Source: an uncultured Methanomassiliicoccales archaeon
GTDB lineage: Archaea; Thermoplasmatota; Thermoplasmata; Methanomassiliicoccales; UBA472
DNA: 64,000 bases
Assembly: GCA_963695345.1 (NCBI GenBank)
Contig: OY968769.1
Coordinates: 2,176,001 to 2,240,000, forward strand
Reading direction: 5' to 3'
The position numbers and the translations under genes are program-made. This document shows positions 19,787-55,537 of this stretch, piece after piece (within the stretch, counting starts at the first letter, position 1; each line of letters starts with the position of its first letter). Under the pieces are notes generated by a model. It worked only from the letters and a program-made list of their open reading frames with translations. It was not told where the DNA came from and searched no databases.

Positions 19787-20464
19787 CTGAGGAATGGAAG
19801 AGCATGCGGGGATAAGAGAGCTATGGTCTGATTCATTCCATGCATCCGTTGGCGATTTGCCGATGGCACCGAAAAATCCGATGACCTCTCCGGATACAGA
19901 GGAAAGGAACCGACATCAAGCAGAATCTGAAGACCTTTCGATGATTATATCTCGTTCGTTAGAATTATTTGCATCATAAGCTTTTTTTATAGTTTTTCGT
20001 ATTATAATTAGTTTGTAATAATTAATATTATCAAATATAATATCAAGGGTTCTATCAGTGTCGTTATCAAAAATGCAATTATATACTTAAAATCAAAATT
20101 GAATTTCCGATAATATGACGAAAATATTGCACATATACCGTTTTAATAGCGTAAATTAGACCGAAACATCGTAATAGCCTAAAGGCGTTTTTATATCGGA
20201 AATTGATAGATTCGGAATCAATTATGATTCTCAGATGTCCGGGTTTAATAACTCAAAATAGGGTTGCTTTTTCCTAGTCGACTAACCAAAAGCATTGACC
20301 AAAGTCGACAATCAAGGCCGCGTTCAACCCTCTTAGCCCAGTCCGACCAGATATCGACGAACAAACTGAACGAAAAGGTTCGTCATGGAACAAGGATCGT
20401 ACGCGAGGGCGGTTATCGGAACGAGGACCAGCCTAACAAATCACCAAGAAAGACGGTCGTTACT

Positions 20465-21889
20465 ATGATCAAGACCAAGTTCGATAGAAGGTCCTTAATG
20501 TTGCTCACACTCCTAGTGGTGGGAGCATTCCTGGGCACATCCGTGGGTGCGGCAGTGTTCGTCGAAGGTCAGGAGGGCACTCTATCAGCCTCTGAGACCG
20601 GTACTGTCGTCATAGAAGCGGCTTACGTCATTTTCAAGGATACCGCGGGCTACACGTGCGCCAAGAACACGACGACCCAGGCGATCGAATTCAAAGATAC
20701 CAATGCAAAACTCATAATCCAGAAGGCCATCGACAGGGCATCGTTCGGCAATGTATGGATCAGGGCCGGTACATATGACATCTCCGCGACGATCTATTCA
20801 TGGTCGACCTCCATCACCGGTGACGGCAACGGGACCATCCTGAAGGCAACCAGCGGCCTGAAGGGAGCGGTCCTCCGTGTGTCCAATGAATACTACAAGG
20901 CCGATGGAACCCTGGTAATGCCCAAGGCGATCGTCGCCGAGAACCGGCCGAATGGTGTGACCATCAGCAACATGCAGATCGACGGCAACAAAGCGGTCCG
21001 GGCTAACGGCGATGGGATGGTCGGGATAGGTTTCATAGACGTCACAAACTGCCATATCCGGGGCGTCTATGCCCACGACATAATAAACGGTCAGGGCTTC
21101 TACATGACCAACTCGCATTACTGCACCATCAGGGATTGTTCGACCTATAACATCGGGGACGACCTTCTGGTAAACTACGGGTCCGGCATCGCCTTCGGTG
21201 AGGCCAGCCAAACCAAGGTCGCAAGTTCGCACATCCTGATCGATAATGTGAAGATCGTCAAATCGTCCATGTCCGCGATAGACCTGGAGCCGGCCAACAA
21301 CATCACCATTACCAACTGCCAGTTCCTAGGTGCCGCAACCTACAACGGATACCCGACCCCGGTTATCACGATGTACGCTCTCAAGGGTTACCTGCCGAAC
21401 GACAACATCATGATCAGCGGCAACCATGTCTATGGAGCGTTCTCCGAGTTCGTCATACTGACCCCGAGCAACTATTCTATCATCACCAATAATATCGTGA
21501 CGTACACCGCCAGCAACGCCATCGCCATCTATTCGACCTCCTCGCACGACAACAAGATCACCGGCAACATCATCAATACGGTCTCGAAGGATGCCTTCGC
21601 CGCTCTGAACTGCAACTCATGCCTGGTCAGCGATAACACCTTCACCGACATCATGACGTCGAAGAACGACTACGGCATCAGGTTCCTGGCCACGACCGGC
21701 ACATCCTACTACAATGTCGTCAGGGGCAACCAAATAACCGGATTCCAATACGCCATCTGCGAAGTGACCGGAACCAATCATATCGTGGTCACCGGCAATG
21801 TGATCAAGTCATGCACCGTGGGCACGTATCTGAAAGGAACGGATATCTACCGGAGCGGGAACATTCTGAACGGCGCAAGCGAGCTGTGA
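20465..21889 (+). CDS. Secreted right-handed parallel beta-helix (pectin-lyase-like) protein
   Basis: Signal-like N-terminus, IQKAID...AGTY...GDGNGTIL cap, and many Asn/Ile/Gly PbH1-like repeats. Confidence 0.85.
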   Translation: MIKTKFDRRSLMLLTLLVVGAFLGTSVGAAVFVEGQEGTLSASETGTVVIEAAYVIFKDTAGYTCAKNTTTQAIEFKDTNAKLIIQKAIDRASFGNVWIRAGTYDISATIYSWSTSITGDGNGTILKATSGLKGAVLRVSNEYYKADGTLVMPKAIVAENRPNGVTISNMQIDGNKAVRANGDGMVGIGFIDVTNCHIRGVYAHDIINGQGFYMTNSHYCTIRDCSTYNIGDDLLVNYGSGIAFGEASQTKVASSHILIDNVKIVKSSMSAIDLEPANNITITNCQFLGAATYNGYPTPVITMYALKGYLPNDNIMISGNHVYGAFSEFVILTPSNYSIITNNIVTYTASNAIAIYSTSSHDNKITGNIINTVSKDAFAALNCNSCLVSDNTFTDIMTSKNDYGIRFLATTGTSYYNVVRGNQITGFQYAICEVTGTNHIVVTGNVIKSCTVGTYLKGTDIYRSGNILNGASEL

Positions 21890-32855: not shown

Positions 32856-34364
32856 ATGATCGGTCGTAGAACCCTCTTAATCATCATATCAAACGTCGGC
32901 GCCGCGGCGCTTTCCTTCATCGGGCTATTGTTCATGACGAACTACCTGGGTAAGGATGTCTACGGCAACATCGCCTGGGTCCTGGCAACGACCGGTACGT
33001 TGAACATCGTGTCAGACCTCGGTTTCATGAGCGCCCACGTCAAAAGGGTGTCCGAGGGGCAGGACGAGAACGATTGTTTCTCCACGTATTTCGTGATCAA
33101 GTCATCCCTTACCGCCTTCATGGTGGTCTTCACCTTCGTGGCTCTGGTCGTTTGGACCGATATCAGCAACACCGCCATAACACCCGAGGCCTGGAACCTG
33201 GTCATCTTATTCCTCCTGTACTGGGTGATGTACGACCTGGCCCATGTCGTGGTGCAAACATACAACGGCAGGAGGGAGACGACCAAGGCTCAGATGATCC
33301 TGCTCACCGATCCCCTGATACGCGTTCCTTTCATCATCTTCATATCCATCAATCATGGTAGCACGTTCGAGCTGGCGTTCTCCTATGTCTTCGCGTCGTT
33401 CGCGGTCCTGCTGGTGGCTCTGTTCTTCATGAGAAGGGGCACCCTCCGCTGGAAGAAACCGACGCTGTTCCGTTCCTACATCAAGTTCGCCCTGCCGATC
33501 TCACTGATCTCCATCGCCGGGGCCATCACCGTCAACCTGGACAAGATACTGATCGGCGTCTTCGATTCGCCGGCTAACGTCGCCTTCTACTCCTCCTCGC
33601 AGACCATATTGGCCACGGTGGGCGTGATAGGCACGGCGGTGGCGACGCTGGCTTTCCCCTCGTTCTCCTACTTGCATAGTAAAGGGGACCTCGAGACCAT
33701 CAAGAAGACCACCTATGCGGCGGAACGGTACATCGCCATGATCGGGATCCCGATCGTGACCCTGGTCGTCCTGTTCCCTACTCAGATATGCGTTACGGTC
33801 TTCGGGGCGGACTTCCGCCCGGCCGGACAGACGATGCAGTTCCTCGGGTTCACGTTGGGAATGACGATGCTCAACCAGGTGTACACGTCCCAGATAATGG
33901 GCGTCAACCGGCCGGACATCACCGCCAAGATCATTCTGGGAACGTTCTTTTTGAACCTCGGCCTGATGCTGGTGTTCATTCCGCACGACCTGTTCGGGTT
34001 CCATATGCTCGGCCTGTCGTACGCGGGGGCGGCGATGGCCAACGTGATCACCGCGACGACGGTGTTCCTGACGGTGCGCATGGTGGTGAAGAGACTGACC
34101 GGTACCGGTACCGAGCGGAGGATGTGGAAGCATCTGGCGGCAGCGGCGTCGGCTGGAGCGGTGCTCGTATTGCTGAATACGATCTATCCCCTCGGAGGGT
34201 TCATTTCCCTGGCGATCTTCTTCCTGGTCCTGGAGGCGATCTTCTTCGGAATGCTGGTAGCGCTCAAGGAATTCACCATCTGGGACCTAAGGCAGATTCT
34301 GGACCTCATCAATCCCGCCAAGATGCTGAAGTATATGGGAGAAGAGATGAACAACAAGAAATGA
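32856..34364 (+). CDS. Wzx-like oligosaccharide flippase
   Basis: 502-aa polytopic protein with DLG, NLDKILIG and FPSFS. Colinear paralogue of 3847-5356. Confidence 0.9.
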   Translation: MIGRRTLLIIISNVGAAALSFIGLLFMTNYLGKDVYGNIAWVLATTGTLNIVSDLGFMSAHVKRVSEGQDENDCFSTYFVIKSSLTAFMVVFTFVALVVWTDISNTAITPEAWNLVILFLLYWVMYDLAHVVVQTYNGRRETTKAQMILLTDPLIRVPFIIFISINHGSTFELAFSYVFASFAVLLVALFFMRRGTLRWKKPTLFRSYIKFALPISLISIAGAITVNLDKILIGVFDSPANVAFYSSSQTILATVGVIGTAVATLAFPSFSYLHSKGDLETIKKTTYAAERYIAMIGIPIVTLVVLFPTQICVTVFGADFRPAGQTMQFLGFTLGMTMLNQVYTSQIMGVNRPDITAKIILGTFFLNLGLMLVFIPHDLFGFHMLGLSYAGAAMANVITATTVFLTVRMVVKRLTGTGTERRMWKHLAAAASAGAVLVLLNTIYPLGGFISLAIFFLVLEAIFFGMLVALKEFTIWDLRQILDLINPAKMLKYMGEEMNNKK

Positions 34365-34699
34365 CCGTTCATCGTGAACGGCCAGCACCCATCGAACTTG
34401 TACTCGCCCTGCTTCCGTGTAGCACCATTTTTCCCGCAGGGCCGTTCTCTCCATCCAGTATCGAGACAAATTGTACCTTGATGCGTCTTTGGCTGTCGAA
34501 GCGTTACTGTGTTCGTAAACATGATATGAGTTCATTCTAACGAGCGGAACCTATCACCGGTGAACGCTTCTTGCATCCGTTACGTTTTCATCAGGAAAGT
34601 GCCTTTCATCCCATCTCAACTTCTGAACGAATCGTTATTCTGATGAGCCCGACCGAGCTTGGGGGCTGTGCATAGTATAAGAATTTGGTGATTTCATTT

Positions 34700-34795
34700 G
34701 TTAAACTAATATCAAAAAAGTTCATATTTTAGAAGGCCAAATGTCATTCAGTTCTTAATATGATGACATATTTCAATATAATTTTGTTTATATCT
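34700..34795 (+). promoter_or_regulatory. Archaeal promoter with conserved upstream boxes (copy A)
   Basis: GTTAAACTAATAT, TTCATATT, TATGATGA and ATATAATTTTGTTTATATCT (containing TATA-like TTTATAT) recur with near-identical spacing at 54901-54995 on the minus strand. Confidence 0.75.
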
Positions 34796-34816
34796 TATCG
34801 TTTTCTATCTTAAATC

Positions 34817-35067
34817 ATGGGCGGGCAAGCGAAAGAGCTCTCGTTGAGGGTTAGTCCGTTCATTCCGTCGGATGGAATTCCGTCGGATCAGTTGCGATCG
34901 ACATCGACTGGATCCATTTTCGATCCAGGATGTTCAGGCTGTATTTCCCAGGGCGATTTCTTTCGATCGCCTGTAAACACGAGGAAGAACAGCTGACGAT
35001 CATCCAATCGTCAGGATGTGCCTCGATCAGTCTGCTGTAGTGAAACGTAACGAAGGAGCTGATAAAC
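34817..35067 (+). ncRNA. Candidate structured 5' leader RNA (copy A)
   Basis: Homologous to 54628-54880 (-). Four hairpins keep their pairing despite sequence changes. Confidence 0.65.
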
Positions 35068-35283
35068 ATGAGAATGGTATCATCAGGGAAGGACAAGAGC
35101 AGGATGGGCGTTGCGACGGCCTTAATAGTCGCGAAGGAACCCACAGCGACGGTCGATCAGTCCGTTTTGTGTCAAGGGGCGAACAAAACCAGGGACCGGG
35201 CATGGACGATCGGCGATCAGGCGATGAAAAAGAACTGTTACGAGAACGTCTCAAGCCAAAGCGGGGGCTGTTCCATATGGTAA
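35068..35283 (+). CDS. Small upstream peptide (71 aa), homologue of 54355-54627
   Basis: SD-like GGAGCTGA upstream, synonymous divergence from its paralogue, and a stop overlapping the downstream start (ATGGTAA). Confidence 0.7.
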   Translation: MRMVSSGKDKSRMGVATALIVAKEPTATVDQSVLCQGANKTRDRAWTIGDQAMKKNCYENVSSQSGGCSIW

Positions 35284-36684
35284 GGATCAGGTTCAACGGC
35301 AGGTCCCTCACGCTGCTGTCGATGATGATCGTGGGGGCGATGATCGGAACATCCCTCCTGGGTGCCGCGTCGGTTCAGGGTGCCACCGCCCCGGTCGTGC
35401 CCCTCGGGGACGGGACGTCGGTTTCAGTGTCCTACACCATTTACAAAGATGGCAGCGGATACACCTGCGCGAAGAACGCGATAACCGCCGCAATCGATTT
35501 CCGGGACACCAACTCCCGAACGGTGATTCAGAAGGCGATCGACAAGCTGTCGGGCGGCTATGTCTACATCAAGGCAGGAACGTATGACATTTCCAAGACC
35601 ATCTACACGAACAAAGTGTCGATCGTCGGCGACGGGAACGGGACCATACTCAAGATCGGCACCACCGTTCACAGCGCAGGCCTGCTGGTGACGAACGGCT
35701 ACTACAAGCTCGATGGCACCTACATGTCCAGCCGTCCGACCGGCATCACCATCAGCAACCTCCAGGTCGACGGCAACCGGGCCGTCAGGACCAGCGGGAC
35801 GATGGAAGGCATCGGCATGATAAACACCCTGAACAGCAAGATCTTCAGGGTCTACGTGCACGACGTGATCGCTGGGACAGGGCATCTACATGTCCAACTC
35901 GCAGTACTGCAGCATTAAGAACAGCCAGGTCTACAACATCGGGGATACGACATACGCGCACTACGGATCGGGAATCGCGTTCGGCGAGGCTTCATCTTCG
36001 AAGATAGCATCGGCGTACATCACCATCGACAAGGTGCGGATCACGAAAGTGTCGATGTCCTGCATCGACCTGGAGCCGGCCAACCACGTGACCATAACCA
36101 ACTGCGTTTTCCGTGAGGCCTCGACCTGGAACGGGCACGCCACCCCGGTGATAACGGAATATGTGATATCCGGATGGGGGGCAAATGATTACATCACGGC
36201 CACCGGCAACAATATGTACGGTGCATTCGGGGAGTTCATCGTCCTGACGCCGAGCAACCATTGTGTGATCAGCAACAACGTCATCACCTATACCGCCGGG
36301 AAAACGGCCGCCATATACTCCACCGGGTCGTACGACAATGTGATCAAAGGGAACAAGATCACGACCATCCAGAAGGACGCGATCGTGGGAGTGAACTGCC
36401 GGTCGTTCTTGGTGGAAGGCAACACGATCGACGAGGCGGCCACGGGTCAGAACGCCTACGGGATCCGGTTCTTCGAATCCGGCGGCACATCGTCCGACAA
36501 CCAGATCAAGAGCAACACGGTCATCGGTTTCAAGTACGCCATCACGGCCAACTACGGTAGCGACTACTCGACGATCACGTACAACACCGTCAAGTCAAGC
36601 TATGTCGGCCTGATGCTGACCGGAACGCACAATGTCAAGATCGGCAACGTGCTGAACGGAGCGCTGGAACGGATATCCGCGTAA
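35277..36684 (+). CDS. Secreted right-handed beta-helix protein (frameshift at GGG 35874-35876)
   Basis: Paralogue of 20465-21889. Removing one G gives IAGQGIYMSNS, matching INGQGFYMTNS in the paralogue. Confidence 0.85.
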
Positions 36685-37683: not shown

Positions 37684-38700
37684 TCACTTAGTCCTGATAT
37701 CCTTTAGCGGGATCTCCTTGCCATCCCGGTCGTACTCGGCGACGATCCGTGGCGGCCTCCGGAAGTACTGGGGCATTTCGCCCAGGGTGGAGAAGCGGAA
37801 CTGGTTGTCCTTGGCATAGGCGAGGGCCATCTCGATCTTGTCGAGGAGGGTCTGGCAATCCTTTTCCGTATCTGCGTACGGTGACGCTCCTGGCATGACC
37901 TCCATCGAATGGAACATCATGGTCAGGGTGACGTCCTTCTTGTCGGCATGCTGCTTAACGACCTGCCTCATCACCTCGACCATGCCCTCTCCGGTGTTGT
38001 TGGAGGGGCGGAGCCACTGCAGCCGATAGAGTCGATCGGTCAATGAATGGAGGGCTGTTGAATGCCATTTCCTGTGCTTCTCCGGTTCCAGGATGGTGAC
38101 AGGGACCTCGAGCACGCCGCGGCCGTTGGGCGCCAGCATGTCCGTCTCCATGGGGTAGTATGGTTGGTCGGGGGCATTGAGGTAGTTGGCACGGCCCTCC
38201 TTGTAATTCCAGTCGATGTTCGGGGTCACGGACGAGTCGACCTTGTAGTTGAGCTCGTCGAGGATCCTAAGAGTGTTGAGCCCTGCTCCGAAGCGGCCGG
38301 CGCGGAAAGACAGTGGTTTGTAGCCCAGGCGGGTGGCGAACAGCGCGGTGAGGTTCACCATCTTCTGCCGCTCGATCTCGTAGGTGTACGAGGATTGCAT
38401 GTTGTCGGTGGCCATGTTCGCCATGCTTCCCTGGTGACCGAGGGGGTCGATCATGTCCCCGTGCATATGGGTCCCGAGCTCGCAGTCCTTTAGGTGCTTG
38501 AGCACGGAGAGGCAGGCGTCGTCCCTGATCACTTCGGGCGAGAGAAGATAGGTGGGCTTGGCTCCGTACTTGGCGAACAGCCTGCCGAGCTTGTCCGGGA
38601 TACCGGTCGTGACGGAGGAGAAGCTTTCGTTGGCGGAGACCTTCCAGTCCTTACCCTTGTCTATCTCGGTATCGATGGTGATGAGCAGATGGATGGCCAT
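37684..38700 (-). CDS. Polysaccharide deacetylase-like protein (NodB/CE4-related)
   Basis: TIDTE, ELGTHMH, SFRAGRF, DSSV and MFHS. Confidence 0.8.
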   Translation of the reverse strand: MAIHLLITIDTEIDKGKDWKVSANESFSSVTTGIPDKLGRLFAKYGAKPTYLLSPEVIRDDACLSVLKHLKDCELGTHMHGDMIDPLGHQGSMANMATDNMQSSYTYEIERQKMVNLTALFATRLGYKPLSFRAGRFGAGLNTLRILDELNYKVDSSVTPNIDWNYKEGRANYLNAPDQPYYPMETDMLAPNGRGVLEVPVTILEPEKHRKWHSTALHSLTDRLYRLQWLRPSNNTGEGMVEVMRQVVKQHADKKDVTLTMMFHSMEVMPGASPYADTEKDCQTLLDKIEMALAYAKDNQFRFSTLGEMPQYFRRPPRIVAEYDRDGKEIPLKDIRTK

Positions 38701-38922
38701 TTGTTCCCGTCCGGGACGAGTTGAGCGCCTTCATGGGTTATGAAATATTGGGTATCGAAATGTTCTGCAAAGAATGACAAAGAAAGTGGTTGGTTCTCTG
38801 TAAACCATCTTCTTATTCTAGTACGGACTGAAAATTGTTGTCGGTACTCTCATGGCTGTTTAGCAGCAACCCGCGCAATCTTAATAATCAACTCATCCCC
38901 TCGGATATGAGTAAATGGTACA

Positions 38923-40800
38923 TTAATAATGGATCGATATGGCGCTCGATGAGTAGATCTTATTCAGGTCAATAACAAGGTTGTGGATTGTTGTGGTGTT
39001 CACATAGTTCAAGTTCGAATTAGACTTCAATTGACTTTCATAAGTCATTCCCTTAGAAAGGTAAATCTGCAAATTACCTCTACTGGCTAACTCTCCATCA
39101 CGAATTAAGATCAGATCAGATGTATTGTTCCTCATGATTGTTGTGATTTTCGAATCTATCTCAATTATTTGAGTGGAATTGTATCCTTCTGTATTCTGGA
39201 GATATCTGAATGAAGCATAATCCGATATGACCAATCCCGTGGAGATATTTGTCGCTGTGAACAATCCTTGGATTTCATCCTGGGATAGATAGGTCGTATA
39301 GAAAGTCCTCTGAACGAGGGGGTTGTCAGAAGAAACGAAATCGTTCGAAATGGAGGTCAGACATAGAAGGAAGAACAGTCCGGTGACAAGGTAGACTCTT
39401 CGGCGTTTGGATTTTGTAACTAATACGAATAGACCAACAGCGGAGGCAAAGACTATGAAATATGTAAAATACTCACCGAATCTCATGATGAAGGTTTCAT
39501 AACTTCCTTGACCGATCAATAAAGTTGGACCCGGAAACACAAGTGGAACGGCCAGGATTGCAGAAATGCAAATTCCCCTCAAGATAGAATTTGAATTTCT
39601 CTTGGATAGAGCATAGAATAGTCCGATTATCATCAACAATAAATAAAACGAGTATTCAATATAATTGAATAGTTCAGTATAAGGATTGGCAAGCAATGCT
39701 TTTCCAATGATCTTGCTTGGAACAAATACGAAAGTATCTCGAACAACCGCCGAGAATAGATCCTGTGCTGAGTATACCCAATATGCTGCAGTAATCACTC
39801 CAGCAAGAATCACGAATCGATAATTCATGACTAGTTCTTTTTCCGTACTTTCACTCTTATAAAATATTATTAACAATATGAATATAATAATCATATAGGG
39901 TATTGAAACGGTATGGTACATGACAACCGCCAATACAAGGAATAGAGCTAACATAAGCTTCTGCGGATTCTTATTCCCTACCAATAATATTAAGATCAAT
40001 ATCATGAAGAACGGCGTTACAGTTCTCGGAATCGACGACATTCCGTATATTATCGAATCAGGGAAAATACTAAGCAATAAGCAAGCAAGCAAAGCAATTT
40101 TGACATTTCCAGTTATCTTACGTGTCAAATAGTATGCTGCAATAATGTAGAATACAACAACCACTCCACCCGTTATGAACATGGTATATCTGACCGGTAT
40201 GTCTATTCCAATGATCATTTGTTCAGAAGATACCAGAATATGCCATAGTGGAAATGGTTGATAGATCCCAAAATTCTGTGATATTGACCCAGAATTAAGA
40301 ATATCGGTTATAAGACTAATATGAACTAATGGATCTGTCCTGCCAATGAAATAGTAATAATTGATATTCTCGCTAAATATTATCAATAGGCTCAAGAGCG
40401 CGATCTCGCTGAGAACGATGTAAAGATTCCTTTTTTGAACTTTCAGCGATATGGCCTGAGAAAAAATAATGGAAGCCATTACCGAAACTACAAGGTAAAA
40501 TATGTCAGATCTTATGATGTTATTATATAATATTATTATGCAAATACTAAATAAATTAAAAAATATTATAGAATATATTGTAAAATATATATTTTTTGAT
40601 TCAATATTATTTTCAACTCGATCATGTTTAAGATATACATTAATAAGGATTGGACCAATAATTAAGGGAAATGCAAGATATATCCCAATTACAGAATAGT
40701 TCGGCATCCCAAGAATCGTTGGTATGATTAAACCTAATATTCCGATCAGGGGGAAAACATATAGAACCATTCTAATCAGAAAATCCTCATTTTTCTTCAT
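38923..40800 (-). CDS. Large polytopic membrane protein (GT-C/polymerase-like)
   Basis: Very hydrophobic and AT-rich, with loop GRTDPLVH...YQPFPLWH. Similar layout to 61432-63373. Start placed at ATG 40800. Confidence 0.68.
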   Translation of the reverse strand: MKKNEDFLIRMVLYVFPLIGILGLIIPTILGMPNYSVIGIYLAFPLIIGPILINVYLKHDRVENNIESKNIYFTIYSIIFFNLFSICIIILYNNIIRSDIFYLVVSVMASIIFSQAISLKVQKRNLYIVLSEIALLSLLIIFSENINYYYFIGRTDPLVHISLITDILNSGSISQNFGIYQPFPLWHILVSSEQMIIGIDIPVRYTMFITGGVVVVFYIIAAYYLTRKITGNVKIALLACLLLSIFPDSIIYGMSSIPRTVTPFFMILILILLVGNKNPQKLMLALFLVLAVVMYHTVSIPYMIIIFILLIIFYKSESTEKELVMNYRFVILAGVITAAYWVYSAQDLFSAVVRDTFVFVPSKIIGKALLANPYTELFNYIEYSFYLLLMIIGLFYALSKRNSNSILRGICISAILAVPLVFPGPTLLIGQGSYETFIMRFGEYFTYFIVFASAVGLFVLVTKSKRRRVYLVTGLFFLLCLTSISNDFVSSDNPLVQRTFYTTYLSQDEIQGLFTATNISTGLVISDYASFRYLQNTEGYNSTQIIEIDSKITTIMRNNTSDLILIRDGELASRGNLQIYLSKGMTYESQLKSNSNLNYVNTTTIHNLVIDLNKIYSSSAISIHY

Positions 40801-40956
40801 GTTACTCACAGAATATCTGACGCGTGCTCCAACAAAGTTCTTCAGATAGAAAAACAGTTGTTTTTGATAACAATAAAAAAAAGAAACAGTGAGTGGGCAT
40901 CCGAACAGAATGAGTGGCGAATCCCTCATAGGGTCGTTCGGAAGATGAAAAGGTCA

Positions 40957-42298
40957 CTATTCTAATAATTTGTTTATTACAAATTTACTTTTACCCGCTT
41001 GGGTCTTTTTAATATCCTCTACTATATTAATTTGAACATTCCATCCAATTGCAAATGCCTCGAGTCCTTTGGATACTCTATCAAGTTTGGTCGAATCGAA
41101 ATTCTTGTGAACAACGATATTGATAGTGATGTCATACTTTGTTTGCTGGACCAATTGAATTTCCAATATTTGATCCGTATGCCCTATTTCTTCTAGAACA
41201 GCATATAAAATTGCTTGGCCATGGAGGTACTTACCTTCAGGCGTAATTAGGAACTCCTTTTCACGGCCTACGATATTGCTCATCGTTCTGTGTCCTCTCC
41301 CACAGGGACAACATTCATCATGGAAATGTCCCATATCACCTGTGTCATATCTGATGAAAGGAAAGGCGAAGTTGTGAAGGCTTGTAGCCAATATCTTGCC
41401 TTCACCCTCTTCGACCCGATCCCCCCTTTCATCTACTCCTTCCAGTACGCTCCTTTCCATATCGATATGTAATCCCGAATGTTCTTGACACTCGTATGCG
41501 CTCACGCCACCATCATTCAACCCATAACCATCAAAAACTTCACATTCAAAAACTTCTGATATCTTCTTCCTCATATGTGGAAGAAGCTTTTCCGCGGTGG
41601 TAAAAACAGCTTTGGGGGAGCGAATGGAAATATTGTTTATCTTAACATGTTCTGCAAAGGTAAAAATGGCGGATGCATAACCTCTGATGAATTGGGGTTT
41701 GAAGGAATTGATAATCGTAGCGTATCTCTCGGGCTTCATTCTCATCGATGTCTGGGGGAAGTTTTCTCAGGTTCCGGGAAAACTCGTGGAACTTGTGGCC
41801 TAGATTACTATATCCACCAAAATCAAGGGATGTCCCCGCAAGGAAAACCATCCTATCTCCCAATCGGTAACCTCCATAGCCCCATCCTCGATATAGAAGA
41901 GCGCCTCCAAGAAAACGATCGTTTGTTGATAGTCTATACGGTAATGGAACCCCCGTTGATCCTCCAGTCATTAGGTCACGATGTTTGATGGTTGAAAGAT
42001 TTCTCGGTTTGAACTCATCTGGCCGGTCCTTGATTATTTCCTTCGTAAGGACGGGTAACTTTTCCAAATCATCGATTGTTTTGATGCTCGAAGGCTCAAT
42101 TTTCAGAGATTTGAATAATTCGCGGTAATACGGTACATTTTCGTTGCAGAACGCTATCATTACCCGCAATTGCTTTTCCTGTTGATCCTTCAGCCGCTCA
42201 TATGGAACATACTGATTCTTCATTACTGTCTGGTATTTGGATGAAAAATCTATGCACCCGATTTCATGGGCTAAAATGAAAATCGTCCTTTCAAACAT
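40957..42298 (-). CDS. Phenylacetate-CoA-ligase-like (PaaK/CapK) adenylating enzyme (frameshift near 41730)
   Basis: VPYY, LPVLTK and TGGSTG in the first ORF; GYAS, YG, IRYDTGD and GR in the second. Confidence 0.85.
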
Positions 42299-42510
42299 GC
42301 CGCTCCCTTTTCATGGCAGGTCGTCGCAATTTTCTTCACCCAATAACTTTTTCTTCTGACATTTGAGTCGGGATTCTGGTAATAAATGAGAAGAAAAAAT
42401 GCAAGGAGTATTTACAGGAATGCAGAGAAGGTTCAGGTTCTTTCCCAGTACGTAATCTGTTTAAGGAATTTGTGAATGGCGAATACCTTCCGACAGGAAA
42501 TTGAATTTCA

Positions 42511-43608
42511 TCAGACATCAATACATTCCTTTTCTGTAAATGGACCAGTCCAAAGATCTGGATTATCTTTCATTTCCTTAATGCTAGACGGATAATTTTC
42601 AATCAACCATATCATAAAAGCAGTCAAATCAATTTTTTCATTGACAATTCTTTCTCGAGATAATTCCCCCCTTTTCTTGCTATCCTGATCTTTCAGGATT
42701 TCTTTGGCTTTATTCAATGCCGCTTCTTCATCGATAAAACTATGGAGAGCGCCATATTTTTGTTCAAGCTCCTTCAAGCACCCCATTGTCCCGGCAAGCG
42801 ATGAAATATAAATGGATGGTGTGCCAAGTAGGGCTGATTCCGATGCCATCGTTGCCCCTTCTCCGATATATAGTGAAGCATTGGCTAAGATATCGTGCAT
42901 ATTATCGGGAGAGGTCCGAATTTGATATTTCATTAAGTCCTGCGGTAACTCACTTTCACCCGTGATGAGGACATTCCCATACTTTTCTAGCTCCTTTACC
43001 AACTTGACCTTACTACATATGCCTTGGTGTCCGATGTCATGGCTCGCATTCCAAGAAACAAAACGAACCACGATGAAAGGTTCGTTTATATCAAGATCAA
43101 GCCCTTGAATCACACCTTTTTTCGGTGTAAAACGTCTGGGATGCAGTGAGGCCAGTTCCATGTAGCTATTAAATCTAATTTGTTTCTTACCAAGATTCCC
43201 ATTGTAGCATGACGGTGTACAGACTGCATTAACAAAGGGTAGGTATAGTCTGATCTGCTCAGTGCTATGTTCTGTATCTTCGAAATTGATACATGGTTTA
43301 CCTAGCATTGATGCTACGTGAGCTGCGCGTATTGATCCGAAGCCCATGAGAACATCAGGATTATATTTTTTAACAATTTTTATGTATTTAATATCATTAA
43401 ATGGAATCCCAAATATCTTTCCGGTCAAGGAATGACCGTAGTTGCCAGCGTTTGAATACTCTAAGTTATACTTGTCAAGCAGATCGAATATGATCTTTTT
43501 TTCACTTGCTGTGACTAGTACTTCGTGACCTCGCTTCTTCATATCCTTTATGAAATGTTTGAAATAATGTACATGAGCCGGATGATTCATATCCACTACG
43601 ATTTTCAT
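42511..43608 (-). CDS. DUF354 family protein (GT-B-like)
   Basis: HPAHVHYFK, DTEH, ASHD and EGATMASESALLGTP. Confidence 0.83.
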   Translation of the reverse strand: MKIVVDMNHPAHVHYFKHFIKDMKKRGHEVLVTASEKKIIFDLLDKYNLEYSNAGNYGHSLTGKIFGIPFNDIKYIKIVKKYNPDVLMGFGSIRAAHVASMLGKPCINFEDTEHSTEQIRLYLPFVNAVCTPSCYNGNLGKKQIRFNSYMELASLHPRRFTPKKGVIQGLDLDINEPFIVVRFVSWNASHDIGHQGICSKVKLVKELEKYGNVLITGESELPQDLMKYQIRTSPDNMHDILANASLYIGEGATMASESALLGTPSIYISSLAGTMGCLKELEQKYGALHSFIDEEAALNKAKEILKDQDSKKRGELSRERIVNEKIDLTAFMIWLIENYPSSIKEMKDNPDLWTGPFTEKECIDV

Positions 43609-43732
43609 TGGTCACCCAGAAAGGAAAATTATCTTCTTTCAAATCCTTTAATAGCGATATTTGTTTATAGATATTTGAACCAATTTACCATTCTTACCAT
43701 ATGGGTAATTTATGGCGAATTAAATTCGTTTC

Positions 43733-44758
43733 CTACTCTCCCAGAAAATCGAAAATGAAATCGCTGAATAATCGATATGTATTCATTGGCATCTTTTTGA
43801 TTACGATATTGCCCATTTTAATCATCTTGCTAGATCTATCAAAGGTAGAAGGATTATTTCTGTCGGATGAATAGACCAGGTCAAATTCCCTGGTTCCCCA
43901 TTTTCTTTTAAAGTTCATCAATCCGCTGTTATGTTTTGATGTTCGGCCGAAATCAAAAGTATGATAGCCCAGCAGACAAGCATCCTCTATGCATTTCCAC
44001 AAGAATGCATTGTATGGATGCATTTGAAGTTTGTTTGGATCCGCACATCCATAGCCGTAAACTACTCTTCCCCCGTAGAATTCCATCAAACCGCCACCGA
44101 TAATTTCTCCTTCGAGTTCTGAGACATAAAGCCTCAAATTGTTGGGGAATTCATTGATAAGATTCTTAAAGAACCTGGGGGGATGGCTAGGCACACCCAA
44201 TGCCTTTTTTGTTAGGCAATTCAAACGATAAAACTCATCAATATCCGAAGGTTCATTGGACTGCCTGACCCGAACTCCTAATTTTTCGGATTTCTTTACC
44301 GCCCATCTGACGCTTCCCTTATCTAGCTTGTTCCAAACCTCTTCTTTAGAAATTGATAAATCCAATTCGTGTGCACAAAATTCGTTAGAGTTATGCAGGT
44401 GGGGATGAACAATACGGTCCTTGAGGATGATGTGCCCTCCCGTTTGTCTGGTTGAAATTTCCATCGCAGTCTGTATAGCTAAATCTTTCTGGTCCATCTC
44501 TCCGATGTAGCTGGCACTATGGGCGAATGGTATAGAGCACAATTCACGTTTATGTCTCAAGTTTGGAATCTTGAAAAGTGGTAGGAAACCAATGATGTCT
44601 CCACTGTCATTTAAAATGAAAACATGGCATGGTTCAATCTCCAAAGTATGAGCGAGGAATCTTGACCATCCAGGCGTGTGATAAATCGTGGAATCGCTTC
44701 TTGCCGATAGGAAATTTATCCACTTTTGCTCATCGACAATTCCCTCAATGATATCCAA
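43733..44758 (-). CDS. FemAB-like / GNAT glycan-modifying protein
   Basis: TIYHTPGW, SIPF, RWAVKKS, FDFGRT and GLMNFKRKWG. Confidence 0.83.
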   Translation of the reverse strand: MDIIEGIVDEQKWINFLSARSDSTIYHTPGWSRFLAHTLEIEPCHVFILNDSGDIIGFLPLFKIPNLRHKRELCSIPFAHSASYIGEMDQKDLAIQTAMEISTRQTGGHIILKDRIVHPHLHNSNEFCAHELDLSISKEEVWNKLDKGSVRWAVKKSEKLGVRVRQSNEPSDIDEFYRLNCLTKKALGVPSHPPRFFKNLINEFPNNLRLYVSELEGEIIGGGLMEFYGGRVVYGYGCADPNKLQMHPYNAFLWKCIEDACLLGYHTFDFGRTSKHNSGLMNFKRKWGTREFDLVYSSDRNNPSTFDRSSKMIKMGNIVIKKMPMNTYRLFSDFIFDFLGE

Positions 44759-44856
44759 TTCTATCTCTCCAATTTACTATTCAATTCCTTTGGATTGCCA
44801 TAATCCATTGAAACCTCTTTTCTTGAAGGGCTAGTAAGAAACTGCATTCGCCTACA

Positions 44857-45591
44857 TTAACGGAACGCTCTTTTTCCCAGGTTGAATACGGCATCCTTCA
44901 GCCTGTAGTTCAGGGCTTCCAATGGAGTTGCCGCCCATCTTTCTGGGTGGCAACTGATATAGGCTTTTGATCCTTTTTGAATTCTGAGGATGATGTCTTG
45001 AGTACTTTCTACCATTGGCATAATGCACCTTCTGATCTGGTCTCGGTTATTGTCCTTACCATTCCATCTGCCTCCGGTATCGGTATAATACTCTAGATCC
45101 GTCAGAATGTTCGAATATGCTTCTCCTTCCAAGGAGTAGTTCGAAAGGTTGTCGTCTTTCCAGAAATCAATATTGTTATGTGCTGAAATCGGGCTTCCAT
45201 GCATGCTCGCCGTCTTGATTTCGCATATGGACCTTAATTGTTCAATATCCTGCTTGAATAGTTTCCTAGCTATCTGGATATCTCCTTTGGCTTTTCTCAT
45301 GACTTCATAATGGAATCCGATTTCATGATTCATTTCTGAGATTTGACGGATGATATCTGCATCGAAAGAGGCAGGTACGCAGCGGAAGTAGTAAGTCGAC
45401 CTCACATTCATTCTGAATTCTAATTGGGCGATCCTTAGGGCGTTCCGTGGTTTCCTATCCACGTCGTGCCTTAAGATTATCTTCGTATTTTGAGGACGAT
45501 TAAGACTATTAAGAAATCGGCAGTCTGTTTGTATCATCCTCACTGCCTTACAGAGGTCTTCATATACTTTCAATGTGAAATCTGACATCAT
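44857..45591 (-). CDS. Deacetylase-like hypothetical protein
   Basis: LRHDVD, STYYFR, HEIGFHYE, MHG and HPERW (NodB-like metal ligands). Confidence 0.7.
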   Translation of the reverse strand: MMSDFTLKVYEDLCKAVRMIQTDCRFLNSLNRPQNTKIILRHDVDRKPRNALRIAQLEFRMNVRSTYYFRCVPASFDADIIRQISEMNHEIGFHYEVMRKAKGDIQIARKLFKQDIEQLRSICEIKTASMHGSPISAHNNIDFWKDDNLSNYSLEGEAYSNILTDLEYYTDTGGRWNGKDNNRDQIRRCIMPMVESTQDIILRIQKGSKAYISCHPERWAATPLEALNYRLKDAVFNLGKRAFR

Positions 45592-45717
45592 CTGAAACCT
45601 TCTAGTCTTTGCTGAGTATCCTCAGCCTCCTTCTTTTTCGGATTATGCGATATTCCAGATGCATATAACCGATTTACGATTGATCCGCATTTTTTTTACG
45701 TTCAGGAATGGCATTTA

Positions 45718-46677
45718 TCACACATTGTGTTTGTCATTAATGTCATTCTCAGCCACGTTAATGATCATATCGAAGAGCAGTATAGTAGCTCCGACCAATG
45801 GAAGACAGAGGAGCGATATGGTTTGAGTTTCATTGATCATCAAAGCAACTCCGATCTTATCTTCCAACAACATTAATATCGATGCCAATGATCCCGCAAT
45901 AATCATTGCGGAACCAACAAGAGGAACAAGGAATGCTCGTGTACTGTTACCGTCTGCCCTCTTTATGGCCAACCTTGTAATGAAATTTCTAACAAGAAGT
46001 TTGGATATCCTTGCCATATATACCGGGTATCTTATTTTTGACTTCTCTGTTCCATAGCGTGCAGGAATCGGTATGTCCAGTATCCTGCATTGCTTGGCAT
46101 GCAGCCTCATGATCATATCATTGCAGTAACCATACCAGGCGAATATCTGATTAGGGTCAATTCTCAATAGTGCCCTTCTCGAAATAGCCGTGTACCCGTT
46201 CTGAGGATCAGAAACGTGATAGCAGCCGGAAGCGAATTTTGTGAGCAAGGTTAGGGTCGTGTTGCCCATGAGGCGCCAGGGGCACATCCCTTTCTTGAAA
46301 TTGGAATCCAGGAGGCGGTTTCCTTTCGTATAGTCAGCATTACCTTCAACGATTGGATCCAATAGTGACTGGAGATGGAGCGGGTCCATCTGGTTGTCTC
46401 CAGCCATTACTGCCGTGATGTCGATTCTATCATCGAGAGCTAGGTTGTAACCCCTGACAATCGCCGATCCTACCCCGCCATTTTTCTGATGAACGGGGAC
46501 TATTCTCCGGTCTTTCTCAGCCAAGGCATCGATTATTCTGCCAGTACTATCAGAAGAACCATCATTCACGGCATAGATCCGGTCGACATATTTTGGGATG
46601 GTGGTGAGCGTCTCAGTAATCAACTGTTCTTCATTATAGGCCGGTACAACAACAGCGATCCGTTTTTCGCGATACAT
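45718..46677 (-). CDS. Glycosyltransferase family 2 (polyprenol-P glycosyltransferase-like)
   Basis: VVVPAYNEE, VNDGSSD, MAGDNQM, DPQNGY and C-terminal TM helices. Confidence 0.9.
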   Translation of the reverse strand: MYREKRIAVVVPAYNEEQLITETLTTIPKYVDRIYAVNDGSSDSTGRIIDALAEKDRRIVPVHQKNGGVGSAIVRGYNLALDDRIDITAVMAGDNQMDPLHLQSLLDPIVEGNADYTKGNRLLDSNFKKGMCPWRLMGNTTLTLLTKFASGCYHVSDPQNGYTAISRRALLRIDPNQIFAWYGYCNDMIMRLHAKQCRILDIPIPARYGTEKSKIRYPVYMARISKLLVRNFITRLAIKRADGNSTRAFLVPLVGSAMIIAGSLASILMLLEDKIGVALMINETQTISLLCLPLVGATILLFDMIINVAENDINDKHNV

Positions 46678-47078
46678 TATCCATCCTCATTTTGTATGGT
46701 TGTGGAATGTTGCTGATGGTCCAGGCATCGGTTCGATAACGAATCCGTACGTTATTGGTCCTAGATGAGGCAACGATTCTGGATTAACGGGGTGTATTCA
46801 AAGAAATATTGTCTTAATTATCATGATTTGAAATGTCAGTCTGGCATTCATGTCGATTATCGATATATCATTTTCGAGGTTATTCTCAAAGCTAGATAAA
46901 TGTTCATTTTCGAGTCAAAAACGCAAATGCCAGATTATGGGAACAAGGACGCTCATACAATCAGTAGTTTATCTAAAAGGTTAGTCGAGACAATTCCTAG
47001 GGTTCTTTAAGAGGTCATTTTTATCATCGTAACAATGGCGATAAACGATAAATACCGACACTGACTTCCTGGGCTATC

Positions 47079-53022: not shown

Positions 53023-54355
53023 TTACGCGTGCGGTGCCGCGTGGACCTCCGTGCTAAGGGCTCCTATTCCGACCGCGTTGACCGCGGCGATCTTGAAGTA
53101 ATAGGTTACCCCGTTAGTCAGATAGGTGTTCGTGTACGACGTGCCAGGACCGATCGTCGCGACCAGGGTTTCCGTTCCGGAAGACCAGCCGCGGTAGATC
53201 TTATAGGCGGTGATCGCCGATCCGCCGGTGGACGGTGCGGTCCAGGTCAGCTTGACCGCTGTGTTGGAACCGGTCGCGGTTATCGATGTTACCTTGCCCG
53301 GGACACCTGACGTTGGTGTCGGTGTCGGTGTCGGTGTCGGGGTTGAGGTGGTCGGTATTGAAGAGCTGCCGCAGTTGAGGACCGTTCCCGTCTTCTGGAT
53401 CATGCTCAGCCCTTCATAGTTGCCGACTCCCTTGCAGTTTATGCAGGAGACGCCCGGTACCTGGAATCCCTGGAACCGGAAGCCGTAGCCGTAGTAGGTG
53501 GGGCACTTGGGGCGCTGTCCGTTGTAGTTGGCAACGCAATCGATCAGCTTGATGTTCTTCGGGGACGAACCGTACTCGACGTGGAACCCGGAACACCAGT
53601 TGTAGTTCGCTGAGCATCTGGTCAGGATGATGTTCTCCACACGGGTGCACTCGACCAGGTCATATCCAACAATCCAGGCATTGACCCAGCCGATGTTGTC
53701 GCCGCCGTTGTGGCTGGCATCGCAGTCGGTAAAGGCAACGTTCCTGATCAGGCTCTTACCGGAATAACTATTGTCATCGCCGAACAGCAGGAATCCATAG
53801 GTCTGGGAGTATGTGACGGTGCAGCGGGTGAATTTCACACCATCGATCATGCCGTTTGCGCCAACGTACAACCAGAACCCGGCGTTCATGTCTCCCGTCA
53901 AGGTCGTGGCGTGAACATCGGTGAAGACCCAGTTCCCGCAGGTCCCTCCAGCCTTATATCCGTATATCTGGAGGTGTCCCGTGAACTTGAACGATTGCAT
54001 CGTAACGTACGAGACTCCCTTGATGTAGAAGTTGTGAGACGAGGTCGATTTGAAAACGGTCGAATCACCATCGCCTTTCAATGTCGTTCCTGTGCCGAAG
54101 TATACGTGGGCCGTGATCATGTAAGTTCCGGCTGGAACGTATGTCACCTTATTGATATTCGACAACGCCCAGTTCAAGGCGGCGGTGAACGATGCCGCGC
54201 TGTATACTGTTCTTCCTGATGAGTCAACGACCACGTTGGATGAGACCTTGTAGTCATATGCTCCGGCGGCGCTGACATCGCTGGCCATCGATGGGAAAAG
54301 CGGATACCGTCAGTCCCATGACGACCAACACGAGGAGGCAATTCCTGAGCTTCAT
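53023..54355 (-). CDS. Secreted beta-helix protein with Pro/Thr linker and C-terminal fibronectin type III domain (frameshift in signal peptide)
   Basis: VPAGTY...GDG cap, beta-helix repeats, (TP)n linker, and FN3 signature LTWTAP...YKIYR...LTNGVTYYFKIAAVN. Signal peptide MKLRNCLLVLVVMGLTVSAFP from ATG 54355 joins the long frame if one base of the run at 54293-54295 is removed. Confidence 0.85.
53315..53338. repeat. (GGTGTC)x4 tandem repeat encoding the Thr-Pro linker
   Basis: Directly visible and in frame within the FN3 protein. Confidence 0.9.
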
Positions 54356-54627
54356 TACGCTACCCCGTGGTCATTGCCCGTGCATTTCTCATTCCGAGGA
54401 CCAGCGTACTTATCCGCCATGGTACCATTCTGCCGATCGTCGATGCGGCTGGCCTGGCGGCTGCTAGTGCCCGATATGGTCCAAGAATACCTGATTCTTG
54501 TTTTATTCGCCATACAGTTCATCCCTGACAAGGCAAACGCCGCTCCGGGTTCCGTTGCGGCGAAGATGGCCGTCCTGGAGACGCCCTTCCCTCGCTTGTC
54601 TGTCTTCGATGGTAGTCCCATTCTCAT
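54355..54627 (-). CDS. Small upstream peptide (90 aa), homologue of 35068-35283
   Basis: GGGAGC SD-like site, MRM start, shared TA..A.EP.A, ANKTR and WTI motifs, and a TAATG overlap with the downstream start. Confidence 0.7.
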   Translation of the reverse strand: MRMGLPSKTDKRGKGVSRTAIFAATEPGAAFALSGMNCMANKTRIRYSWTISGTSSRQASRIDDRQNGTMADKYAGPRNEKCTGNDHGVA

Positions 54628-54880
54628 GTTTTTCAAGCTCCCTTTCGTTACGTTGCACTCAGATAGACTGAGAAGAGACAGTTTAACCAGACGACACGAT
54701 GGTCGCCGAGGGTCTGCCTCATATGCCGGCGATTGGAAGAATCGCTGTAAGGCGTACAGCCTGAACATCAGGAATCGAAAATGAATTCCACGATGTCGAT
54801 TGCAACTGAACCCGACGGAGTATCACCGACGGCAGAGTGAACAAAACCCCCGACGAGGGTTCTTCCATTTGTTCTCTCAT
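54628..54880 (-). ncRNA. Candidate structured 5' leader RNA (copy B)
   Basis: Homologous to 34817-35067, with pairing-preserving substitutions in the stems. Confidence 0.65.
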
Positions 54881-54900
54881 AATTAGGCAATTGTTTAATG

Positions 54901-54995
54901 AGATATAAACAAAATTATATCTAAATCATTCATCATAATAAATAACATCATAATATTTGCACCAGTAATATGAAATATATCCATATTAGTTTAAC
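54901..54995 (-). promoter_or_regulatory. Archaeal promoter with conserved upstream boxes (copy B)
   Basis: Same four boxes as 34700-34795, including the identical 20-mer at 54901-54920. Confidence 0.75.
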
Positions 54996-55537
54996 GAATG
55001 GATTCGTTACCTTCTTATAACATGACCGGTTGCCGCGACCTCGGCATCGCGAGCGTTTCCCTCTTTTTGTTACGTCGAAAACGACGAAATGGCAGTCCGA
55101 TTGAGGACGGTTTATGTACGAACTTCCACATCGGAGCGCCTGAGTCCACATACCAAGTTTCTGTAATGATCCGTGGGTCGCACTGCCGCGGATATCTTGG
55201 AATCATGGGATCTGCCCGGCGCCGAGACTTCAGTTCTACGCCCTTTGAGCGGATGATCCGATAAGGCTTGATACTATTGTGTATAGTTCAAGCGATCCCA
55301 TTTTGACGCATCCAGATGAAAAACTATCGTCCTACCCCTGTTAACAATATGGCAGGCGATCGTGGACACCCGACCAAAATGAATGATCGTGAGCAATAAG
55401 GTACCTGGCCGTTCACCTATTTGCAATCCTTACGGGTATATACCGATATGATTCCTCTCGATTCCAGATGCCAAAAATCCACTCAATGACAAAGTTACAT
55501 CAATTAATTTATATCATCGTCATGAATAGAGAATGAC

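Follow-up and report, generated by a model that had tools for sequence, protein, structure and literature searches.

What kind of genetic element places the same ordered series of promoter boxes, structured leader, small open reading frame (ORF) and secreted-protein gene at two sites, on opposite strands, of a single stretch of archaeal DNA? The question is raised by the window analysed here, a stretch of 64,000 nucleotides (nt; positions 2,176,001 to 2,240,000 of contig OY968769.1, GenBank assembly GCA_963695345.1) from an uncultured Methanomassiliicoccales archaeon, in which the minus-strand interval 54355-55024 (copy 2) is the second instance of a unit located at 34676-35283 of the plus strand (copy 1), with all elements of the unit present and in identical order. 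Based on comparisons within the genome and to its relatives, we consider it rather probable that the unit combines a co-regulated promoter, a cis-acting leader RNA and a translationally coupled upstream ORF; it is present in the genome in five paralogous copies. Structured leaders and coupled upstream ORFs are each known kinds of element; new are their combination, the derivation of the ORF from an archaellin, the restriction to a single genus and the lack of a described RNA family for the leader. The genome, called G000 here, is a single contig of 2.56 Mb with 56% guanine plus cytosine (G+C) that encodes McrA and eight archaellin-family matches, which mark it as that of a methanogen; G002, G003, G004 and G006 are relatives of the same genus. 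Positions are window coordinates unless stated otherwise, and those of copy 2 follow the minus-strand reading.

The original prediction regarded copy 2 as a second copy of a cassette with preserved element order, and this is borne out by the anatomy described below, the twin CCGTCGG boxes, an exact 11-mer and nucleotide alignment. The twin-CCGTCGG pattern occurs exactly twice in the window, once in each copy (34865-34886 and 54812-54832), as compared to an expectation of 0.04 and to 0 of 100 shuffles that gave two occurrences, and the 11-mer AACGTAACGAA is likewise limited, within the window, to copy 1 (35044-35054) and copy 2 (54644-54654). In a genome-wide blastn comparison the two copies share 70% identity over 496 columns (E 5e-38). 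Their pairwise alignment resolves into blocks of identity separated by diverged spacers, in agreement with the block-wise conservation noted previously, and divergence is accordingly non-uniform rather than uniform.

The predicted leader extends from the putative transcription start to the small ORF, over ~253 nt in copy 2 (54628-54880) and from 34817 to 35067 on the plus strand in copy 1, with a length of about 250-270 nt across copies. Its structure, 53 pairs in nine helices composed of the RNAalifold consensus and an outer P1 stem, was assessed for covariation in a plain MAFFT alignment of 14 copies. Paired cells amount to 91.8% of 729, and two-sided changes occur at 21 of the 53 pairs, as opposed to 9.5 +/- 2.1 in shuffles (0 of 500 reach 21) and 6-10 with slid partners. 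Five of the six pairs of the inner P1 stem display such changes, and P2 is paired in 97.8% of cells, with two-sided changes at two pairs. Alignments enlarged by five sequences to 19 were fitted to models and hence lean towards the structure; here, 10 of 23 pairs in each half of the leader have two-sided changes, against 3.3 and 4.5 in shuffles, as do four of the seven pairs of P4, contributed by diverged copies. The sense strand has 91.8% of its cells paired, as compared to 83.8% for the antisense strand, a difference that follows from the excess of G-U (71) over A-C cells (13). Single-sequence folds are moderately more stable than those of shuffled sequences (z -2.9 for copy 1 and -1.8 for copy 2). 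Taken together, the alignments indicate that the leader is a real sense-strand RNA structure under selection.

This is in agreement with the rates at which the unit changes. Across syntenic pairs, the divergence K is 0.16-0.33 for the leader and 0.20-0.27 for the promoter, as compared to a synonymous divergence (dS) of 0.39-1.20 in the flanking genes; both are lower than dS in all six pairs, the narrowest margin for the leader being 0.33 versus 0.39 in one pair of 123 codons. Together with the compensatory changes that keep the helices, these values support the previous suggestion that the duplicated unit has been maintained by selection.

In the predicted fold of copy 2, P1, P2 and P3 follow each other and precede P4, which encloses P5-P7. 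P1, called H1 in the original prediction, is a long hairpin (54835-54878, helices 1 and 2) with a conserved purine-rich stretch in its internal loop, P2 (54812-54833, helix 3) is the hairpin formed from the twin CCGTCGG boxes and P3 (54766-54795, helices 4 and 5) is a two-part hairpin with a U-rich loop. P4 is a long-range helix (54664-54763) in which CAGGCUG (54757-54763) pairs with CAGUCUA (54664-54670), and which together with P5 (54729-54745), P6 (54714-54720 with 54675-54681) and P7 (54690-54707) makes up helices 6-9. Near the end of the leader a conserved 3' box, UGCAACGUAACGAA, which is largely unpaired, precedes the Shine-Dalgarno sequence GGGAG (54638-54642), the two spanning 54638-54657. 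UGCAAC of the 3' box may pair with GUUGCA at 54801-54806, a possibility that is complete in 9 of 14 copies. Invariant unpaired stretches are found in the P1 internal loop, the P5 loop and the 14-nt 3' box, and in conjunction with the helices they would fit a specific ligand- or protein-binding site better than a mere stabiliser. A switch is conceivable on energetic grounds in which the 3' strand of P4 pairs with the Shine-Dalgarno region, at -3.4 to -11.5 kcal/mol overall; for 10 of 14 copies the value is -7 to -11.5 kcal/mol. We considered, and rejected, attenuation at an oligo-T tract of the P3 loop, as the tract is not conserved and the 14-copy alignment holds no conserved T5 tract. Homology of the leader to archaellin 5' regions was rejected as well, because DNA similarity starts only at the start codon.

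None of the 4227 families of Rfam 15 matches anywhere in the window at gathering score, a scan that includes both copies, and a permissive scan of 34600-35300, i.e. of copy 1, returned a single chance-level match on the opposite strand (E 2.2). Likewise, we found no description of the unit in Rfam 15 or in the literature searched on methanogen RNA motifs and truncated archaellins, the supplementary lists of candidate motifs lying outside that scope.

The three copies outside the window, C, D and E, are located at genome positions 803168-802571 (-), 1291712-1291114 (-) and 2272172-2272771 (+). The original prediction pointed to a genome-wide search for further copies; those found share one gene context and sit at syntenic places, as opposed to random gene contexts. 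The leader is known in 19 instances, 16 of them in six genomes of one genus and three in metagenome contigs, and each of the 19 precedes a small ORF and then a beta-helix gene. A BLAST search with copy 1 among 47 genomes of the family detected the unit in G000 and in six of the seven other genomes of the genus, with the promoter only in G003, and in none of 39 genomes from seven genera outside it. Covariance models of the 5' half (R1) and the 3' half (R2) of the leader, which score 111 and 113 bits on copy 2, were used to scan 151 genomes from 34 genera of the order and the 47 family genomes, respectively. R1 yields 76-126 bits at 14 places within the genus and 41-45 bits at two diverged copies (in G004 and G006); outside the genus weak scores of 20-22.5 bits appear in four genomes, three of which were inspected and discarded as they lie inside unrelated ORFs without cassette features, the fourth (G146) being uninspected. 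R2 recovers the same 16 copies and one decayed remnant in G006, and nothing in the 39 family genomes outside the genus. No credible copy was thus found in the other 33 sampled genera of the order. In metagenomes, 3 of 47 candidate stretches from a scan with the small-ORF profile were confirmed, all three with the leader directly upstream, within contig reach. A leader-pattern scan of a contig collection produced 20 matches (18 bacterial, two in unrelated archaeal metagenome-assembled genomes) where ~8 are expected by chance; the genus was absent, and its records possibly lie outside the collection. As far as searched, the unit is confined to one genus of methanogenic archaea.

Within the genus, copies occupy corresponding places. 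Comparing 1.4-kb upstream flanks, with identities given for the upstream neighbour gene, copy 1 is syntenic with G002b (a flippase gene, 72%), copy 2 with copies in G004 and G006 (an epimerase gene, 96-97% in translated alignment), copy C with G002c (67%) and copy D with G002d (95%). These four copy groups with a conserved neighbour across species argue against mobility of the unit. The maximum-likelihood tree places copy 2 and its counterparts in G004 and G006, which have the upstream epimerase gene in common, in one clade (100/100 support) that excludes copy 1, and the duplication that gave rise to the two window copies therefore predates these three species, in line with the old duplication previously proposed. 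The remainder of the tree is an unresolved star, except for a pairing of G002a and G002c at 100/99. The latter two are complete cassettes with beta-helix genes, arranged in tandem ~2 kb apart (L022/L013, G002:C48:160291-162818), and their similarity indicates recent duplication or gene conversion within the genome. A locus in G006 (L070, G006:C4:27982-28107, minus strand) contains a decayed 3'-half leader remnant of 44 bits without promoter boxes. A truncated small ORF related to that of the copy 2 type and a tandemly duplicated beta-helix gene come after it, and the locus shows a cassette being lost.

The promoter region of copy 2 (54881-55024), delineated by an alignment of 15 promoter regions and by one of the five copies, carries conserved AT-rich boxes at about 54922-55019, among them TATAAGAA (55012-55019), GTTAAAC-TAATAT (about 54983-54996) and TTATTATGATGA (about 54931-54942). 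Across copies such boxes span ~130 bp upstream of the TATA box. They are followed by a 19-nt stretch (54903-54921), the likely promoter core, with the putative TATA box TTTATATC (54902-54909); the corresponding region of copy 1 is 34676-34816 of the plus strand, with the core at 34775-34793 and the TATA box at 34787-34794. Allowing up to three mismatches, the core is present at five places in the 2.56-Mb genome, every one a cassette. The TATA box lies ~26-30 nt upstream of a conserved purine, which in 10 of the 16 genomic copies is the first base of an ATG, with a TATA-to-ATG spacing of 29-30 nt; in copy 2 this ATG, at the predicted start, is 54878-54880, 29 nt past the start of the TATA box. 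One archaeal promoter type would then drive every copy, and the upstream boxes are most likely bound by one dedicated transcription factor, in which case the loci would constitute a small regulon. Both the start site and the co-regulation by a common factor are deduced from conserved motifs and spacing, and are to be taken as predictions.

In G003, the promoter boxes, TATA core and P1 hairpin of the unit are located before a different gene, which encodes a 380-residue secreted protein with a C-terminal Fn3 domain (L018:340-1644). This gene has its ATG at the predicted transcription start, is possibly leaderless and lacks both the remaining leader and the small ORF. The position of the ATG supports the start-site prediction, and the arrangement suggests that promoter and P1 can function as a module in the absence of the other leader elements. 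A conserved leaderless mini-ORF at the predicted start was rejected for the cassettes themselves: despite the ATG in 10 of 16 copies, the frames measure 12-54 codons and are not conserved. EarA-type control was also dismissed, as the TACATA consensus, as given in an excerpt of PMC10665913, is exact only in the G004 and G006 copies and the upstream region of the genome's archaellin genes shares no box with the cassettes.

The small ORF of copy 2 (54355-54627) starts with ATG AGA ATG at 54627 and comprises 90 codons plus stop, that of copy 1 (35068-35283, plus strand) 71 codons plus stop. The ORF named "MRM peptide" in the original prediction is indeed present at the expected place, but at such lengths it is not a short leader peptide, and its descent from an archaellin, described below, went unrecognised there. 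Across the 14 copies it is open throughout, at 64-90 codons, with in-frame indels. Pfam gives no family at E <= 1 for the five small ORFs of the genome, the archaellin family PF01917 (Arch_flagellin) included, and NCBIfam holds no family, archaellin or N-terminal-domain model for them. Relatives amount to 15 clusters among 5.8 billion proteins. A profile search of 1.84 billion representatives yields 38 matches at E <= 0.001, 33 of them 52-129 residues long, and among ten of the matches that were read five are true archaellins or archaellin fragments (whole-library E 2e-8 to 8e-4). Aligned by hhalign to the genome's eight archaellin-family matches, the small ORF reaches a probability of 94.5% and E 7.7e-8 over 59 columns, and blastp against the genome's archaellin-family proteins, a small database, descends to E 3e-8. 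The homology covers the basic N-terminus, the Gly-Val junction and the ANK...GDQA block. The closest relatives are found in the genome itself, where a tandem cluster of five archaellin-family matches (genome 685651-691810, minus strand) includes four that are near-identical over the N-terminal 60 residues; the fifth member (685651-686052) is shorter and divergent.

The small ORF thus derives from approximately the first 55-60 codons of an archaellin, with loss of the hydrophobic helix: hydropathy over 19 residues peaks at 0.2-1.7 among the 14 small ORFs, versus 2.1-3.0 in the eight archaellin-family proteins. The products are basic (isoelectric point 8.0-11.6). Amino-acid conservation of the N-terminal region and of an ANK-R-D-AW-IGDQAMKK block extends to 11 of 14 copies; in the copy 2 clade, the IGDQAMKK block is replaced by a longer, fast-changing tail. 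At the column aligned with position -1 of the prepilin-peptidase site, where a glycine is expected, 10 of 14 copies have retained this residue. The ratio of nonsynonymous to synonymous divergence (dN/dS), taken over the 25 closest of 91 pairs, is 0.35-0.91, i.e. below 1 throughout, and variability is only slightly higher at third codon positions (0.24) than at first and second positions (0.18). By these measures protein-level constraint on the small ORF is weak, and this ORF is the least constrained block of the unit; its main selected property is probably being translated and ending at the right place.

The arrangement around the small ORF is compatible with such a role. All 14 copies have a GGAG-type Shine-Dalgarno sequence, 7-14 nt ahead of the start codon, and the stop codon overlaps the next start by 1-8 nt (1, 4, 7 or 8) in 17 of 19 instances, the others having gaps of 2 and 4 nt. 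In copy 2 the stop codon (54355-54357) shares one base with the ATG (54353-54355) of the signal-peptide ORF, and in copy 1 the overlap is 7 nt. In addition, the conserved C-terminal Arg-Gly-Cys codons form a purine-rich stretch, a candidate ribosome-binding site of the next gene. Termination-reinitiation at -4/-1 overlaps (ATGA/TGATG) is described for archaea in the excerpts of PMC6728339 and PMC10666635. From this anatomy we infer that ribosomes recruited by the Shine-Dalgarno sequence would translate the small ORF and then, by termination-reinitiation, the gene for the secreted protein. The secreted protein would be made only when the small ORF is translated, and any effect of the leader on the ribosome-binding site of the small ORF would pass to the downstream gene.

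All downstream proteins have Sec-type signal peptides and right-handed beta-helix domains (PF13229, PF12708, NosD), and among solved structures none is close to them by sequence. The copy 2 gene (53023-54355), assigned by its Pfam matches and by comparison to the G006 orthologue, encodes a secreted protein that adds a C-terminal Fn3 domain, and the copy E product has two beta-helix modules; the copy 1 gene spans 35277-36684 (plus strand). A protein-complex prediction for the copy C small ORF with the mature beta-helix protein (score 0.01, mark 0.32) is uninformative either way. The claim that the small ORF overlaps a signal-peptide gene is correct for the one-base overlap, but the signal-peptide ORF of copy 2 ends after 33 codons and the mature beta-helix/Fn3 sequence continues in another frame (54288-53023). 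As compared to the intact G006 orthologue, the frame is broken after 22 codons (~54300) by one extra base in a T run. The copy 1 gene likewise differs from intact paralogues or orthologues, in that a G run near 35877 has an additional G that disrupts the reading frame. Marker completeness is 85% on a closed contig, and a class-II aminoacyl-tRNA synthetase-like gene of the aspartyl/asparaginyl type (genome 1293728-1295027) is apparently split into overlapping ORFs of 313 and 123 residues; for these reasons we consider the frameshifts likely to be assembly indel errors and not marks of pseudogenes.

Several points nevertheless weigh against the combination of promoter, leader RNA and coupled ORF proposed here. 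Sequence is the basis for predicting where transcription starts, that the leader exists as an RNA and that the small ORF is translated. The pairing of the proposed switch is not clearly above that in shuffled sequences, which do as well at a fraction of 0.05-0.30 in 11 copies and above 0.7 in three. The P4 strands are near-invariant in the main 14 copies, which is by itself neutral on pairing. The dN/dS of 0.35-0.91 would suit a merely translated spacer as well as a working protein, the similarity of paralogues may stem in part from gene conversion and, if the frameshifts in two of the five downstream genes are real, those copies drive broken genes.

The alternatives differ in which part of the unit they deprive of function. 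Long structured 5' untranslated regions stabilise the mRNA of surface-layer genes and some methanogen mRNAs, and the leader could similarly act as a constitutive 5' stabiliser or translation enhancer for abundant secreted proteins, without sensing or switching, the small ORF serving as a ribosome-loading ramp. This would agree with helices that are conserved while pairing that sequesters the Shine-Dalgarno sequence is not clearly above chance, and with P1 being kept at the start of the unrelated secreted-protein gene in G003, as fits a general 5'-end hairpin; however, nine helices plus invariant unpaired stretches exceed the needs of a stabiliser and the unit is tied to one small gene family only, for which reason we regard it as unlikely, if well worth bearing in mind. 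Little credence is given to a functionless relic, in which 5' fragments of genes (the start of a leaderless signal-peptide gene and that of an archaellin) are carried along with beta-helix genes and homogenised by gene conversion. The small ORF is an archaellin fragment with weak protein-level constraint, in G003 a real secreted protein has its coding start in the P1 sequence, the tree groups G002a with G002c of the same genome and a 3'-half remnant has decayed in G006, all as such a relic would have it, but helices are maintained by compensatory changes, the leader evolves slower than synonymous sites between species, all 19 instances preserve the small-ORF frame and its stop position and the orthology of the copy 2 clade across three species is inexplicable by conversion within a genome.

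It is also quite improbable, in our estimation, that the small-ORF product is itself the functional part, i.e. a soluble basic mimic of the archaellin N-terminus that is produced along with the secreted beta-helix proteins and acts on archaellin processing or assembly, or on its own mRNA. The genome does carry an archaellin gene cluster, the product is basic (8.0-11.6), dN/dS stays below 1 in all 25 listed pairs and the N-terminal region and ANK-R-D-AW-IGDQAMKK block persist in 11 of 14 copies; against this, dN/dS rises to 0.9, the IGDQAMKK block is lost in the copy 2 clade, the peptidase-site glycine is restricted to 10 of 14 copies and the C-terminal Arg-Gly-Cys codons coincide with the downstream Shine-Dalgarno sequence, and part of the conservation is therefore at the nucleotide level. 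A mobile element that spread through the genome, such as a miniature inverted-repeat transposable element or an insertion-sequence remnant, is hardly credible: the multiple copies and AT-rich 5' end are reminiscent of one, yet each of four copy groups keeps its upstream neighbour gene from species to species, the downstream gene of every full copy is of one kind, the promoter core is confined to the five cassettes and a repeat scan of the window revealed no terminal inverted repeats or target duplications around the copies. Finally, the co-regulated promoter, leader RNA and coupled ORF could be elaborated such that the leader is a genus-specific sensing RNA (a riboswitch or protein-binding switch) that gates, via the coupled ORF, beta-helix protein secretion for remodelling of the glycan surface, with the ORF product, an archaellin N-terminus without its membrane helix, as a decoy for the archaellin processing or assembly machinery. 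We consider this elaboration speculative and of low probability; if true, surface remodelling and swimming would be switched oppositely by one transcript.

The genomic surroundings are described here in their own right. A stretch of ~62 kb with polysaccharide-synthesis genes (among them flippase, DUF2206, DUF1616, epimerases/dehydratases, acetyltransferase and glycosyltransferase) contains copies 1, 2 and E; copies C and D are elsewhere. Two flippase-type (Polysacc_synt) paralogues at 3906-5356 and 32914-34364 share 70-80% DNA identity, the second being directly upstream of copy 1. Inside the polysaccharide-synthesis region, 38000-47000 is an island of low G+C content (38-47%, versus about 54% elsewhere) that may have been acquired horizontally. 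A third type-1 beta-helix paralogue (20465-21889, plus strand) has no cassette. It is preceded by a different AT-rich region (19940-20464) with a TATA-like site ~270 nt before the start codon, and may have an unrelated long leader.

To our knowledge, cis-regulatory RNAs have rarely been described in archaea and, apart from a handful of widespread riboswitch classes, hardly at all in methanogens. With a large, nine-helix leader that is supported by covariation and falls outside Rfam, the unit provides a defined case in which post-transcriptional control of the archaeal cell surface can be put to the test. The reuse of a motility-filament gene fragment as an upstream ORF exemplifies how regulatory ORFs may originate. 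Even if the unit provides only stabilisation and a coupling ramp, it would still be a useful strong-expression module for poorly tractable methanogens.

Compared to known systems, the unit combines familiar features in an unusual manner. With archaellins (ArlB/FlaB, PF01917) it shares homology of the small ORF to the first ~60 residues, but the small ORF lacks the hydrophobic helix, the globular domain and a Pfam match, measures 64-90 as opposed to about 200 residues and is not a member of the family as defined. EarA-type control of archaellin promoters, as outlined in the excerpt of PMC10665913, likewise involves short conserved boxes directly upstream of the TATA box that recur at co-regulated loci, whereas the cassette boxes differ in sequence and the genome's own archaellin promoter is without similarity to them. 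The leader resembles riboswitches and other structured cis-regulatory leaders in Rfam in its length, covarying helices and invariant unpaired stretches, in its position directly upstream of a ribosome-binding site and in its recurrence before functionally related genes; it differs in belonging to no Rfam 15 family and in being archaeal and restricted to one genus. Finally, in common with the coupled overlapping gene pairs of archaea, as portrayed in the available parts of PMC6728339 and PMC10666635, the small ORF and the beta-helix gene are co-directional, overlap at stop and start codon and have an upstream ORF with its own Shine-Dalgarno sequence; in contrast to these pairs, the upstream partner is small, weakly constrained and not a complex subunit, and is placed behind a long structured leader.

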